NCBI GenBank assembly: GCA_964603585.1
Contig: CAZRVK010000001.1
Coordinates: forward strand, 271,856-335,855
Length of the DNA stretch: 64,000 nucleotides
DNA from: an uncultured Planctomycetales bacterium
Lineage (GTDB): Bacteria > Omnitrophota > Gorgyraeia > Gygaellales > Profunditerraquicolaceae
Reading direction: 5' to 3'
Shown piece by piece: positions 6,715-14,756 of this stretch. Under the pieces are notes generated by a model, which made no database searches, was not told where the DNA came from, and worked only from the letters and a program-made list of their open reading frames with translations. Numbering within the stretch: the stretch's first letter is position 1; each line of letters begins with the position of its first letter. Made by a program: the position numbers and the translations under genes.

Positions 6715-7140
6715 CTACTTTTCCATCCTCAACTCAAGGGAGTCACTGTCTGAACCGATCGTCACATGGTCATCGTATATTTTTATGATCTTGAACTTTC
6801 CAATAAAACTGCCCTCGCCAAAAACCTCTCCGTTAATCAGCGCTTGAGGGTTACGAGGGTCCCAAATGATCCCGGTAAGTGCCAGATCAACCGTATCCTC
6901 ATTCCGGCTGTAAACCTGCCCGGAAAAAGGGCATCTGCCCCAGGATACCGGAAGCTCGGGATCAGTAAATGAAACAGCAGGCAACGTCTTTTGCGTTAAT
7001 GTATCTGCAAGAACCGAAGTTGCCGAAACCTTGGGATTACGCGAATTTAACAACTTAAGACTGTTAGCCCAAACTAAGACCATAACTGGGACCAAAACAA
7101 TAATGCCGATTATCTCTATCTGTTTCTTATCCATTCTCAT
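6715..7140 (-). CDS. PilP-like pilus assembly protein (N-terminal membrane anchor plus a beta-rich domain). Assignment rests on position only
   Basis: 141 aa with a TM anchor, located directly downstream of pilO-like and pilMN. No strong motif. Confidence 0.4.
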   Translation of the reverse strand: MRMDKKQIEIIGIIVLVPVMVLVWANSLKLLNSRNPKVSATSVLADTLTQKTLPAVSFTDPELPVSWGRCPFSGQVYSRNEDTVDLALTGIIWDPRNPQALINGEVFGEGSFIGKFKIIKIYDDHVTIGSDSDSLELRMEK

Positions 7141-7703
7141 TTATTTATCAGGTCCTCCTGAAGATAAGCAGAAACAATCAATTCGACATTCAGGTTGGTT
7201 TGTCCCTGGCCGTTTCCATGGATATTAACCTGCTTGAGAGAAATCAAGATCGGGAAATTATCCCGCAAAGCCAATAAATACCTGCCAAGATCCTGATACG
7301 TGCAAACCAACTTCAAGGAGATCGATAATTCCTTCAATGCCGAACCGGGGATATTAACTGATAGATCCTGTTTATTCAAGAAAGAGATATTTTCCACCTC
7401 GATCTTTAATCGCCTGGCATTTTCCGATAAATTCCTGATCACCTCATTTTCACTAACCGGCAGCCTTACTGAAGCTTCTTTTAGCAGTAAATTCAGGTCC
7501 TTTAGTGCTTCCGATAAAGGTTTGGCTCCGGTTATTTTGCCTATCTGGGATATCTCTTTTTCCATGAAGGAAATCTTGTTTTTCATTACCGACAGCATCC
7601 GGCTTTGCGGCAGATAAACAAAAACGATAAAAACTAATACTGCCAGGACAATTATCACAGACAGACAAATAATCTTTTTTTGTGTTTTAGATAATATCTT
7701 CAT
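7137..7703 (-). CDS. pilO: Type IV pilus assembly protein PilO-like
   Basis: 188 aa with an N-terminal TM, a coiled coil and a C-terminal domain. Translationally coupled to pilMN and to the PilP-like gene. Confidence 0.55.
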   Translation of the reverse strand: MKILSKTQKKIICLSVIIVLAVLVFIVFVYLPQSRMLSVMKNKISFMEKEISQIGKITGAKPLSEALKDLNLLLKEASVRLPVSENEVIRNLSENARRLKIEVENISFLNKQDLSVNIPGSALKELSISLKLVCTYQDLGRYLLALRDNFPILISLKQVNIHGNGQGQTNLNVELIVSAYLQEDLINK

Positions 7704-9289
7704 TGTAATTTAAAGCCTATATCAAAGGTAAGCACATCTTCACCTGCCTTACTACTTTTTGCGACATTAATAATATTGATATCCTTGAACATGCCGGAAT
7801 CAGCCAAATCACGGAGAAAACTGGTCAATACTGTATCCGGATTAAGATCGGCTTTCTTGACAAACCCGGCAATATCCCCCGACATAGAACCGGCATTCAA
7901 GGAAAGATCGCTAAAGAAAAGGTCTTTTGCGGGAATATTACTTATTTTCTTAAGCATCATCCCGAATTGCGGCTGGCTATCCCTGGTTTTAGCAAAGAAA
8001 TTATTGAGGGCATCAAGCCTGTCTTTCATCTGCTTGATCTCCAGCAATACATTCAGTTGAAAATTAGTGTTATCCAAACGGTTCCGGTAAACCCGGGTAC
8101 TTACTTTGATAAAAGCAAAAGAAAACAGTAAGAGCAGCAACGCAATAAAGGTTACCCAGAACAAATAAGTCATCTGCAGTAACTCGTTCTTTTGAGTCCT
8201 AAACTCATCCGGCAGGATATCGCTACTCCTGTTGTAATCAAGTACCATACCCAAAGAATCATACTCCTTAATAAGGGTTTCCGGCTGCAGGCCAATAGAA
8301 ACCTTGATGTTTTCATTCACATCTACTAAAACAACATCCAGAGATAATTCCATCTTTAAGAATTTATCCAAATTCGGGATAGCCAAACCTAAACCTCCGA
8401 CCAGCATCTTCTCTATCTTTATTCCATCGAACTGATTAGCATAGTAATCACAAGTCCTTTTTATCTCCTGCGAAAGCAGTTCCAGCCAAGGGCGCAATAA
8501 AGCCAGGACCTGGTTTGCCCCCAGCTTATCCGTGTATGCCTGATTGTTTAGAGGTATACCTCCAACAAATAGCACCTTTTCTATTTCTTCTGCAGTTAAC
8601 TGCACCTTGCCCTTGTTTTCAGAATATAATTCTGTAGCCAATGCCTCCTTGAGTTTATCCACCGAAACGGGCAACTCACGGTAAAAACACAGAACTCCCT
8701 GTTTATATATCCCAAAATAAGAGCTATGCTCATAAAAATGCAGTATCCCTATGGTCGTATCTTTTCCCGGGATAAATTTACCCTCGATAAGGCTGGAGTA
8801 ACCAAAAGCAGAGATCCCCACACGCACAACCTCAACACCTGCCTGTTTTAAGAGCAAAACCTGGGAACGGACTTCATCTTCTAAAGCCAGGGCACAAATA
8901 ATATCAACCAGCTTGGCCCCGTCACTATCTATACGTTTATTGATTAAAGAGTACCCAAAAACTGCCTTAGCGGTATCAAAAGGACAATCCGGTTTAAGTT
9001 TGAAAACTGCGGCTTGGACCAATTCGGATTCAGGAAGATCGGGAAGTACAATACGTTTAATAAAAAGCGTGCGTAAGGACGGGATAAGGATTACTTTTGG
9101 ATGCGGGATCCTGTTATCTTTAATGAAATCGCGCAAACAATCCAAGATCAGGGTATTATTGGCGCCTGCGGGCAAAGCGACAATTTTAGCGGCATTTACC
9201 TTGATCACATCGCCAGCAACAACCTGGAATATCTTTAGCCCAAGGCTAAGGTCAACGATTATAAAGTGCTCTATTTTCTTTACCAGCAT
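7700..9289 (-). CDS. pilM: PilM-PilN fusion: actin-like ATPase fold (PilM) followed by a TM helix and a PilN-like coiled-coil domain
   Basis: 529 aa. The N-terminal ~350 aa look like the FtsA/PilM fold. There is a TM segment (LFWVTFIALLLLLFSFAFI) at ~aa 370, then a PilN-like C-terminus. Confidence 0.7.
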   Translation of the reverse strand: MLVKKIEHFIIVDLSLGLKIFQVVAGDVIKVNAAKIVALPAGANNTLILDCLRDFIKDNRIPHPKVILIPSLRTLFIKRIVLPDLPESELVQAAVFKLKPDCPFDTAKAVFGYSLINKRIDSDGAKLVDIICALALEDEVRSQVLLLKQAGVEVVRVGISAFGYSSLIEGKFIPGKDTTIGILHFYEHSSYFGIYKQGVLCFYRELPVSVDKLKEALATELYSENKGKVQLTAEEIEKVLFVGGIPLNNQAYTDKLGANQVLALLRPWLELLSQEIKRTCDYYANQFDGIKIEKMLVGGLGLAIPNLDKFLKMELSLDVVLVDVNENIKVSIGLQPETLIKEYDSLGMVLDYNRSSDILPDEFRTQKNELLQMTYLFWVTFIALLLLLFSFAFIKVSTRVYRNRLDNTNFQLNVLLEIKQMKDRLDALNNFFAKTRDSQPQFGMMLKKISNIPAKDLFFSDLSLNAGSMSGDIAGFVKKADLNPDTVLTSFLRDLADSGMFKDINIINVAKSSKAGEDVLTFDIGFKLQ

Positions 9290-13064: not shown

Positions 13065-13076
13065 AAGTTATTGTTT

Positions 13077-14756
13077 TCAAAACTCTTGAGTCACCCGCAA
13101 AACTTCTTCAGCGGTAGTAACGCCGTTTCTAATTTTTTCCAGACCGTCATCGTAGAGTGTATGCATTCCCAGGGATATAGCTTTTTTCTTTATTTCATTT
13201 GCCGATTTCTTTGCCATGACCATATCCTTGATCTGGTCATCCAAAATAAGCAGTTCAAAAATACTGATCCGCCCGGAAAAACCGGTATTCTTGCAATTGG
13301 CGCAATTTTGTCCCCGGCCACGGAACAAATCGATTGTCCCTGTTATCCCCAAATCCTTTAACACCTGCTCCGAAGGGATAAATTTCTCTTTGCATTTAGG
13401 GCAGATAACCCGCACCAGCCGCTGGGCCAAAATACCGATAACCGAACTAGAAACCAAAAACGGCTCAATCCCCATATCGATAAGCCTGGTTAAAGCGCTT
13501 GCGGCATCATTGGTATGCAAAGTAGAAAACACCAAATGTCCGGTAAGCGATGCCTGTATGGCAATCTCGGCGGTTTCTTTGTCACGGATCTCCCCTACCA
13601 TAATAATATCCGGATCCTGGCGCAATATACTCCTTAACCCATTGGCGAAACTCAACCCAGCCTTCGGATTAACCTGGGTCTGACGGATCAAAGGAATCTC
13701 ATATTCTACTGGGTCTTCTATAGTAATAATGTTCTTTTCGATCGTATTTATCGTATTTAACGCGGAATAAAGCGTAGTGGTTTTTCCGGAACCGGTAGGG
13801 CCAGTCACAAGAACTATTCCATTGGGCTTATAGATCAATTTCTCAAAGGCCTTTAGATCATTTTCTCCAAAACCTAAATCTGCCAGGCCCATCAGCACTG
13901 AACTTTTATCCAAGATCCGTAAAACCATGTTCTCCCCATAAACAGTGGGAAAGGAGGAAACCCGAAGATCCAGGTTCTTATTTTCCATCTTAAGCTGAAT
14001 CCTGCCATCTTGAGGATTGCGGTTCTCGGCAATATCCATTTTAGCCATTACCTTGACTCGGGAAACCAAAACATTCTGCAAATATTTTGGGAGATTTTCT
14101 GCCTCATGCAAAATACCATCTACCCGGTACCGTATGAGCAGATTATCCTCACCAGGTTCAATATGGATATCGGAGGCCTTATCCTTTACCGCCTGTAGAA
14201 TGATCAGGTTCAGTAATTTTACTACCGGGGCTTCCTCAAAGACATCCAGCATATCCTTTGCCCCTTTAATCCTTTCCTCCAGCTTCTCACGAGTCAAGCC
14301 CTTCACCAGGTCTTGAGCACTGCCCAATGCTCCATAATACTGATCGATCACCTTTTCTATCATACCCAGGGTAGAGATCATCGGCTCAATAGCACTAAAC
14401 TTGCTTTTTAGCCTGATCTCATCGATCGCCTCCACATTATGCGGATCCGCCATCGCCACCGTCAAGCTATCACCGATTTTAAAGATAGGCACTACCTTGA
14501 AACGCCTGGCAGTTGTTTCCGGAATGAATTTTATCACCTCCGTATCAATTAGGTAATCGCTTAAATCGATAAAAGGGACCCCTGTATAATCGGCAACAAC
14601 TTTAGCGACTTCGACTTCGGAAACCAACCCCATTCTTTCCAAGATTTTCTCAACAGGCAACCCACCTTTTGAAGCTTCCTCCATGGCCTTATCAACCTGT
14701 TCCTGGCTAATTATCCCTTTTTTCACCAGAAGCTCCAAATTCGCCTTTTTATCCAT
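13077..14756 (-). CDS. pilB: Type IV pilus assembly ATPase (GspE/PilB family)
   Basis: 559 aa with an N-terminal GSPII_E_N domain, Walker A (GPTGSGKTTT), Asp/His boxes and a tetracysteine motif (CPKC..CANC). Confidence 0.9.
   Translation of the reverse strand: MDKKANLELLVKKGIISQEQVDKAMEEASKGGLPVEKILERMGLVSEVEVAKVVADYTGVPFIDLSDYLIDTEVIKFIPETTARRFKVVPIFKIGDSLTVAMADPHNVEAIDEIRLKSKFSAIEPMISTLGMIEKVIDQYYGALGSAQDLVKGLTREKLEERIKGAKDMLDVFEEAPVVKLLNLIILQAVKDKASDIHIEPGEDNLLIRYRVDGILHEAENLPKYLQNVLVSRVKVMAKMDIAENRNPQDGRIQLKMENKNLDLRVSSFPTVYGENMVLRILDKSSVLMGLADLGFGENDLKAFEKLIYKPNGIVLVTGPTGSGKTTTLYSALNTINTIEKNIITIEDPVEYEIPLIRQTQVNPKAGLSFANGLRSILRQDPDIIMVGEIRDKETAEIAIQASLTGHLVFSTLHTNDAASALTRLIDMGIEPFLVSSSVIGILAQRLVRVICPKCKEKFIPSEQVLKDLGITGTIDLFRGRGQNCANCKNTGFSGRISIFELLILDDQIKDMVMAKKSANEIKKKAISLGMHTLYDDGLEKIRNGVTTAEEVLRVTQEF

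Follow-up and report, generated by a model that had tools for sequence, protein, structure and literature searches.

A GT-C-fold membrane protein encoded directly downstream of pilA in Omnitrophota is a candidate pilin glycosyltransferase

The type IV pilus operon of an uncultured bacterium of the Omnitrophota, carried by a 64,000-nucleotide stretch of contig CAZRVK010000001.1 (hereafter the window), contains directly downstream of pilA, which encodes the major pilin, a gene, here called gene X, which encodes a 518-amino acid (aa) membrane protein (positions 9373..10929, minus strand). On balance, this protein is probably a glycosyltransferase of the GT-C type dedicated to the pilin, that is, an accessory enzyme of the pilA cassette which would act in the way that TfpW acts on its pilin in Pseudomonas aeruginosa. 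A sequence-only reading of this DNA had put the protein forward as a candidate pilin-modifying enzyme, and we retain it as a good one because a GT-C fold with an invariant Asp pair (DD) is predicted, because it falls outside the Wzy_C family, and because its orthologues are always encoded beside pilA.

The gene neighborhood was examined in a set composed of 3 genome loci (single-protein query of genome contigs), 6 look-ups of encoding contigs, and 80 metagenome loci (alignment query), the neighbors being scored with the pilus proteins of the window itself and with the prepilin motif. The 33 orthologue loci of this set represent 26 lineages at 95% identity, and in 18 of these the sequence upstream of gene X is readable over 700 bp or more. 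Each of the 18 has pilA immediately before gene X and on the same strand, at a distance of 450–560 bp start to start, with one variant at -1.3 to -1.6 kb. In this variant lineage (L030), two PilA-like matches precede the start of the GT-C gene by 1648 and 1271 bp. Further upstream, the orthologue loci carry pilC and pilB and, downstream of gene X, pilMN, pilO, and a gene encoding a 141-aa protein. The synteny survey suggested in the sequence-only reading is thus answered in favor of a link with pilA: the arrangement is repeated in 18/18 orthologue lineages and is therefore far beyond chance, and none of the roughly 55 distant relatives shows it. Likewise, two Omnitrophota paralogues that were looked up show no pilus linkage. 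Between gene X and pilMN, most orthologue loci have three genes for minor-pilin-like proteins together with one for a protein of about 480–520 aa without family match (positions 9585-12459 in L004, 9520-12884 in L006, and 9475-12452 in L007), and the counterpart of this block in the window is a mere 83-nt gap (9290-9372). As the window lacks the minor-pilin block and keeps the pilA-X pair, the pairing persists even where the minor pilins have been lost or relocated.

Between pilA and gene X stands a terminator-like hairpin with a stem about 18 bp long and a U-run after it (10957..11008, minus strand). Folding of the RNA of positions 10930-11045 (minus strand) gave a minimum free energy of -31 kcal/mol with a z-score of -4.73, and none of 200 shuffled sequences was as stable. 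The GGCTGGCTTTTC...GAAAAGCCAGCC hairpin and its T-run were also found in orthologue loci. A simple terminator scan missed this hairpin because its 12-nt loop exceeds 8 nt, and it was recovered by RNA folding. Pilin-accessory cassettes (tfpO, tfpW, tfpY, and others) have as a hallmark a Rho-independent terminator that separates the pilin gene from the accessory one and is thought to set the stoichiometry between the two proteins (PMC11841053). As read from the DNA, the predicted pilA-hairpin-X layout matches this published pilin-terminator-accessory cassette.

The pilA gene of the window (11041..11442, minus strand) encodes a major type IV pilin of 133 aa in its precursor form (N_methyl E 2e-8, IV_pilin_GFxxxE), which is the sole canonical prepilin across the 64-kb window. 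Its leader, MSKRSG, precedes a mature protein of 127 aa that starts with FTLIELV and contains no Cys residue, so that the lack of a Cys pair announced by the sequence-only reading is borne out. PilA is strongly conserved in the 18 lineages and displays a conserved NPYTxS motif and a C-terminal WSSAxxTxxSG[FY] motif. Judging from their sequences, such pilins, with 127 aa in the mature form and no Cys pair, offer potentially available Ser/Thr sites, those of the two conserved motifs included.

The 518-aa protein is composed of a membrane domain of GT-C fold (residues 1-392; 9754..10929, minus strand) with 11 predicted transmembrane (TM) helices and the N-terminus inside, and of a short periplasmic tetratricopeptide repeat (TPR) domain of about 2.5–3 repeats (residues ~393-500; 9430..9753, minus strand; TPR_1 E 3e-11, TPR_2, TPR_8). 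The multi-TM body and the C-terminal TPRs noticed beforehand are therefore both present. The TPR matches in Pfam and NCBIfam are located at residues 448-477, the TPR helices of the AlphaFold2 model run from residue 398 to 499, and the orthologue profile matches consensus TPR structures and those of the OGT TPR. The AlphaFold2 model, built from 43 orthologues, is a confident one, with a mean predicted local distance difference test (pLDDT) of 83 and a predicted template modelling score (pTM) of 0.84. A Foldseek search with this model returned STT3A (E 4.9e-4) as well as AglB and DPY19, and no O-antigen-ligase or Wzy_C-type chain was among the results. Sequence identity with the solved GT-C enzymes (PMT1/2/4, ArnT, and STT3/PglB/AglB) is just 9–13%. 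The positive-inside rule indicates a cytoplasmic N-terminus, with 14 Lys/Arg per 48 residues in the short 'in' loops versus 1 per 34 in the short 'out' loops, and the predicted topology puts every conserved polar motif as well as the TPR domain in the periplasm. On the basis of the model, the protein has a GT-C fold in which the acidic D35-D36 pair is predicted to open the first extracytoplasmic loop.

The active-site motifs were compared between 86 orthologues and 61 paralogues, and also with about 55 relatives of other lineages, using as a reference the ligand motifs of the TMTCs: M1 DD, M2 SHKSYRP, M3 RxD, M4 KE(T/Q)xxT, M5 DW, M6 PxxP, and M7 ERxxY (Eisenhaber et al. 2021, PMC7801869). D35-D36, the DD motif of the first periplasmic loop (codons 10822..10827, minus strand), is invariant in 43/43 aligned orthologues, and the DD position is occupied by Asp in 84 of the 86 orthologues, the other 2 having gaps, as well as in all 61 paralogues. 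Its equivalents are motif M1 of the TMTCs, D55/E56 of ArnT, and D77/E78 of Pmt1 (PMC7801869). Invariance in orthologues of 46–59% identity extends to the HPxHxE block (H122-P-x-H125-x-E127, residues 122-127), to P321/N324/P327, and to E334-R335-x-x-Y338, and the TMTC motifs kept by the pilus clade are accordingly M1 (D35-D36), M6 (P321...P327), and M7 (E334-R335-x-x-Y338). The HPxHxE block lies in FAVHPIHTEAVSWISG, which spans residues 119-134 in the loop that follows TM3. This stretch, present as the sequence-only reading had said, was wrongly taken there for the hallmark of DUF1736, since DUF1736 corresponds to the TM7-TM8 loop, a loop critical for donor binding (PMC7801869). It is in the latter loop that residues specific to the clade and invariant within it are found, i.e., K249, Y253, Y254, P261, R264, G265, and H268. 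When set against the YX6PFX7P motif in periplasmic loop 4 of TfpW, the clade consensus Y254-x6-P261-L-x6-P269 is one residue shorter and has a Leu in place of the Phe, and the window protein has T269. YX6P(F/L) occurs in the paralogues too and is thus not specific.

Several observations weigh against an active pilin glycosyltransferase, and the main ones come from the same motifs. In the pilus clade, G135-x-Y137 stands in place of the R-x-D of M3, with Y137 replacing the Asp residue, and G175-N176 in place of the K/R-E of M4. Furthermore, the YRP insertion of M2 is absent from the 518-aa protein and the DW of M5 is not recognizable, so that four of the seven published ligand motifs (M2, M3, M4, and M5) are missing or replaced. 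Nearly all of the ~55 relatives display the DD / HPxHxE / x-D / K-E / ERxxY set. The M3 and M4 positions have been assigned by modelling to the binding of sugar, phosphate, and metal in the TMTCs and in ArnT (PMC7801869), and their loss implies that catalysis may be altered or lost. The disappearance of RxD and K-E suggests, as far as sequences can tell, a handling of the donor or of the metal unlike that of canonical TMTC-like enzymes. The most unusual trait of the protein is indeed that these modelled ligands are gone while the putatively catalytic Asp pair is strictly conserved. Other points on the same side are that no glycosyltransferase family is recognized in the protein itself by Pfam or NCBIfam, that a profile search of the PDB with the membrane domain only found no sequence, and that no gene for donor synthesis (GT2/GtrB-like, GtrA-like, or DprE-like) was seen in the scanned parts of the window, the Pfam scan extending no further than 47 kb. 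Finally, Ser plus Thr account for 14% of the window PilA and for 18% of its last 80 residues, with 15% Gly, and the pilins range over 14–21% Ser plus Thr. This ordinary content is no evidence in itself for glycosylation, and the pilin, whose C-terminal half the sequence-only reading had described as rich in Ser/Thr/Gly, is only modestly rich in Ser/Thr.

The family placement of the protein has to be reached through its relatives. The orthologue group, of about 490–515 aa and 46–59% identity, consists entirely of Omnitrophota proteins. In an exhaustive search covering 1.84 billion representatives, 879 of them matched at E ≤ 1e-30, and the orthologue group was reduced to a single full-length cluster at 50% (492 bits), with a fall to 196 bits for the full-length relative that came next. 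Among the profile checks proposed beforehand (DUF1736, PMT_2, Wzy_C, and TPR), the TPR one was positive, whereas Pfam DUF1736, PMT_2, PMT, and also Wzy_C had no match at E ≤ 10 in the 518-aa protein or in 43 orthologues. With gathering cut-offs of 26.1 bits for PMT_2 (PF13231) and 27 bits for TMTC_DUF1736 (PF08409), five paralogues (P0103, P0118, P0141, P0123, and P0115) pass PMT_2 with 27.5–36.5 bits, the orthologue P0072 reaches 25.8 bits, i.e., 0.3 under the cut-off, and only the paralogue P0103 passes TMTC_DUF1736, with 30.2 bits. In addition, a hidden Markov model of the orthologue membrane domain aligns end to end with the membrane domains of the long-TPR paralogues (E 1e-41 to 1e-63). 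As paralogues pass the models and the 518-aa protein does not, its TMTC/PMT_2 placement is transitive, and membership of the GT-C/PMT clan, as deduced from these alignments, appears well supported solely in this way. The designation 'TMTC-type' of the sequence-only reading is acceptable in this transitive sense, and goes too far for a protein that passes neither model and is without M2, M3, M4, and M5. A PDB profile search with the full alignment was dominated by TPR proteins, a profile search aimed at remote relatives that carry names gave mainly the same Omnitrophota set and no TMTC or TfpW names, and tblastn against annotated plasmids gave no match. The GT-C/TPR family is strongly expanded within Omnitrophota. 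As to its long-TPR members, a tandem pair of such proteins is encoded in L089 (6001-10359), and a pair of secretin genes is found near a long-TPR paralogue in L090 (11468-13791), one of them apparently with a TPR fusion.

The closest functional precedent is TfpW, with which the 518-aa protein was compared through published descriptions. TfpW is the pilin D-arabinofuranosyltransferase of P. aeruginosa group IV strains Pa5196/PA7, a GT-C protein of 646 aa in which 11 TM segments are predicted, periplasmic loop 1 carries a DDx motif, and the C-terminal part is a periplasmic TPR domain. The tfpW gene directly follows pilA on its 3' side, and TfpW loss abolishes pilin D-arabinofuranosylation (Villela et al. 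2020, bioRxiv 10.1101/2020.04.19.049825). TfpW homologues of other Proteobacteria likewise adjoin pilA. By description, gene X and its product share with TfpW the position directly 3' of pilA, the terminator cassette, about 11 TM segments, the DD pair in loop 1, and the C-terminal periplasmic TPR domain. They differ in that the protein is shorter, with 518 aa and about 3 TPRs only, in that no D-arabinofuranose pathway genes are seen near gene X, and in that the X clade is without the RxD and K-E motifs which its own relatives retain. Moreover, tfpW belongs to a variable pilin island of Proteobacteria, whereas gene X is fixed in a core pilB-pilC-pilA-X-pilMNO operon of Omnitrophota. The original study of TfpW is reportedly that of Kus and colleagues in 2008. 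Given this precedent, a GT-C and TPR pilin glycosyltransferase beside pilA is not a new concept, and the claim of the sequence-only reading that a TMTC-dependent modification of pilin would be new was overstated (bioRxiv 10.1101/2020.04.19.049825). The logic, the architecture, and the cassette layout of TfpW are already known; what is new is the phylum, the fixed membership of a core operon, the minimal TPR domain, and the rewired ligand motifs.

Comparison with other systems helps to situate the protein. Like the eukaryotic O-mannosyltransferases TMTC1-4 (PMC7801869), it has extracytoplasmic TPRs after its 11 TM helices, the M1 DD, the P-x-x-P of M6 in TM9, and the ERxxY of M7; unlike them, it passes neither PMT_2 nor TMTC_DUF1736, its TPR domain is much shorter, and it resides in a bacterial periplasm, where its likely substrate is a pilin instead of cadherins. 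In contrast to PMT1/2/4, ArnT, and STT3/PglB/AglB, it has a TPR domain and no MIR or OST-type soluble domain. The parallel drawn beforehand with tfpO holds for gene position only, both genes lying 3' of pilA. TfpO (PilO) and PglL have the same presumed outcome, an O-glycosylated pilin, but they belong to the unrelated Wzy_C/O-antigen-ligase family, use a pyrophosphate-linked oligosaccharide donor, and have no TPR domain. Also related are proteins of a large Acidobacteriota clade, to which the distant metagenome relatives L068 and L082 belong. With about 25% identity (phmmer E 2e-31), they fall within the superfamily of the 518-aa protein, and the Acidobacteriota GT-C/TPR gene lies beside the major pilin genes in 4/4 loci examined (L082, L091, L092, and L093), within a type IV pilus cluster. 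In L082 (3056-14986) and in L091-L093 (~200-17900), it has the pilins on one side, followed further out by pilR/pilS, and a LolA-like-pilC-pilB-pilMNO block on the other, an Acyl_transf_3 gene being interposed between the GT-C gene and the pilins in L092. Unlike the X clade, these proteins have 630–700 aa and long TPR arrays, are encoded convergently with 2–3 pilin genes, and keep the canonical x-D and K-E. Taken together, the Acidobacteriota and Omnitrophota pilus loci make the linkage of this superfamily with type IV pilins recurrent across phyla.

By analogy with TfpW, the PMTs, ArnT, and the TMTCs, the following mechanism may be proposed. A sugar linked to polyprenyl phosphate, the product of genes located elsewhere in the genome, would be presented on the membrane's periplasmic side. 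D35-D36 in the first periplasmic loop would activate or position a Ser/Thr hydroxyl of the membrane-anchored pilin, and the donor phosphate could be held by E334-R335 of the ERxxY motif together with the TM7-TM8 residues K249, Y253, Y254, R264, and H268. The TPR domain would recruit the globular domain of the pilin, which would be O-glycosylated ahead of its polymerization by PilB/PilC/PilMNO, and the terminator after pilA would hold the enzyme far below the level of the pilin.

Among the other explanations, the main one, a GT-C-fold pseudoenzyme or pilin chaperone, i.e., a membrane adaptor devoid of transfer activity whose old acceptor groove and TPRs hold pilins or bridge PilC and PilMN, appears unlikely; it would account for the loss of the M3 Asp and of the M4 Lys-Glu, which are near-universal in relatives and modelled as sugar, phosphate, or metal ligands. 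It would also fit the fixation of gene X in a core operon and not a variable island, the shrinkage of the TPR domain to about 3 repeats, and the existence, at the same gene position, of non-enzymatic pilin accessory proteins such as TfpY. It is difficult to reconcile with the invariance of D35-D36, HPxHxE, and ERxxY over deep divergence, which is hard to explain without ligand chemistry, and the new invariant residues of the TM7-TM8 loop (K249, Y253, Y254, R264, and H268) look like the rewiring of a site and not like its decay. A related and tentative view, which we consider rather unlikely, is that the X clade is a vertically inherited part of the core pilus machine with a rewired GT-C site, deprived of the RxD and K-E residues conserved in relatives from bacteria to human TMTCs and endowed with an invariant set of its own in the TM7-TM8 loop; it would use a donor or a mechanism undescribed for GT-C enzymes or would be the first GT-C-fold pseudoenzyme turned pilin chaperone. 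Alternatively, the protein could be an active GT-C glycosyltransferase with another substrate, such as the 137-aa pilin-like protein encoded nearby, a component of the pilus machine, or an envelope glycan, its place in the operon reflecting co-regulation only. This is quite unlikely: the GT-C fold and the conserved active-site core would be explained, many Omnitrophota paralogues are not pilus-linked and presumably have other targets, and the 137-aa pilin-like gene is conserved nearby as well, but the adjacency is specific to pilA in 18/18 lineages, with a cassette-type terminator, it is kept where minor pilins are absent, and the validated precedent, TfpW, acts on the adjacent major pilin.

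A reading of the protein as a pilotin for secretin assembly, of the PilF/PilW/Tgl or TadD type, is highly improbable. It draws on weak, TPR-driven NCBIfam matches to PilW (E 0.0075) and Tgl (E 0.012) and on the names 'PilF' and 'TadD' given by the Joint Genome Institute (JGI) to some Acidobacteriota relatives, and we rejected it as these matches score 15.8 and 15.0 bits versus cut-offs of 154 and 225. Besides, pilotins are small outer-membrane lipoproteins, whereas the 518-aa protein is predicted to be an 11-TM inner-membrane protein of GT-C fold, and the operon is without a secretin gene. A TfpO/PilO/PglL-type O-oligosaccharyltransferase (Wzy_C/O-antigen-ligase), moving a preassembled glycan from undecaprenyl-pyrophosphate to the pilin, has nothing in its favor except the gene position 3' of pilA and can be regarded as extremely improbable. 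It is refuted at the family level, the 518-aa protein and 43 orthologues having no Wzy_C/O-antigen-ligase match at E ≤ 10, and the motif set is that of the PMT_2/TMTC type. The combination that the sequence-only reading had named as fatal to its proposal, a match to Wzy_C only and no GT-C acidic pair, is thus the reverse of what was found, namely, no Wzy_C and an invariant D35-D36.

If the pilin glycosyltransferase that we favor is active, enzymes of the TfpW type combining GT-C and TPR domains would reach beyond a few Proteobacteria, to Omnitrophota and Acidobacteriota, and the Omnitrophota enzyme would be encoded as a constant component of the core pilus operon and not in a strain-variable island. 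Pilin glycosylation affects adhesion, the assembly of pili, and resistance to phages. A life in attachment to other cells, or in dependence on them, is attributed to Omnitrophota, and the surface chemistry of the pilus may matter for it. A testable substrate would be gained for the TMTC-like proteins of bacteria, which exist in large numbers and are almost entirely uncharacterized. Furthermore, the altered motif set constitutes a natural experiment on the dispensability of GT-C ligand residues, and the altered site would be all the more interesting if it reflected a new chemistry or a pseudoenzyme.

The remainder of the pilus gene string agrees with the sequence-only reading, all eight open reading frames (ORFs), gene X included, being verified on the minus strand as one co-directional series. 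The most upstream encodes a pilB-type assembly ATPase of 559 aa (13077..14756, minus strand; Pfam T2SSE E 8e-140, MshEN E 9e-21), which is upstream in the orthologue loci too, and is followed by a pilC-type platform protein of 402 aa (11856..13064, minus strand) with two T2SSF domains (Pfam E 1e-56). Next comes the 137-aa pilin-like protein (11470..11883, minus strand), with a degenerate prepilin signal, KA/LTVFE, and weak matches to T2SSG (E 2.5e-5) and GspG (E 8e-4); a homologue occupies the same slot in most orthologue loci, with a canonical prepilin motif in several of them. Downstream of pilA and gene X, for whose product Pfam and NCBIfam return TPR families only, are encoded a PilM-PilN fusion of 529 aa (7700..9289, minus strand; PilM_2 E 2e-14 at residues 43-344, PilN E 0.03 at residues 488-528, TIGR01175 pilM E 7e-16) and a PilO/GspM-like protein of 188 aa (7137..7703, minus strand) with a weak GspM match (E 0.014), whose orthologues in L004 and L007 carry PilO matches. 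The string is completed by a membrane-anchored protein of 141 aa (6715..7140, minus strand), PilP-like by position only and also encoded after pilO in the orthologue loci, where it is conserved, for which Pfam and NCBIfam scans gave no family match. The scanned parts of the window yielded no secretin or minor pilin, and PADLOC defence models gave 0 matches for all the proteins of the cassette. The rest of the window consists of housekeeping genes, among them LptF/LptG, consistent with a diderm envelope, and homologues assign the organism to Candidatus Omnitrophota.

Directly upstream of pilB, positions 14784-19109 (minus strand) encode two single-domain response regulators of 124 and 136 aa and a PAS/HisKA sensor kinase of 1177 aa. 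As this arrangement is repeated in L004 and L007, these proteins are probably regulators of the pilus operon. At a greater distance, a single 448-aa ORF (36462-37808, minus strand) joins a Maf domain and a Peptidase_M48 domain. Lastly, a ComF-type protein with a double zinc ribbon and a phosphoribosyltransferase domain (40340-41125, plus strand) adjoins a fusion of a response regulator and a phosphoribosyltransferase (39067-40155, minus strand), a pair that may have a link to DNA uptake via the pilus.

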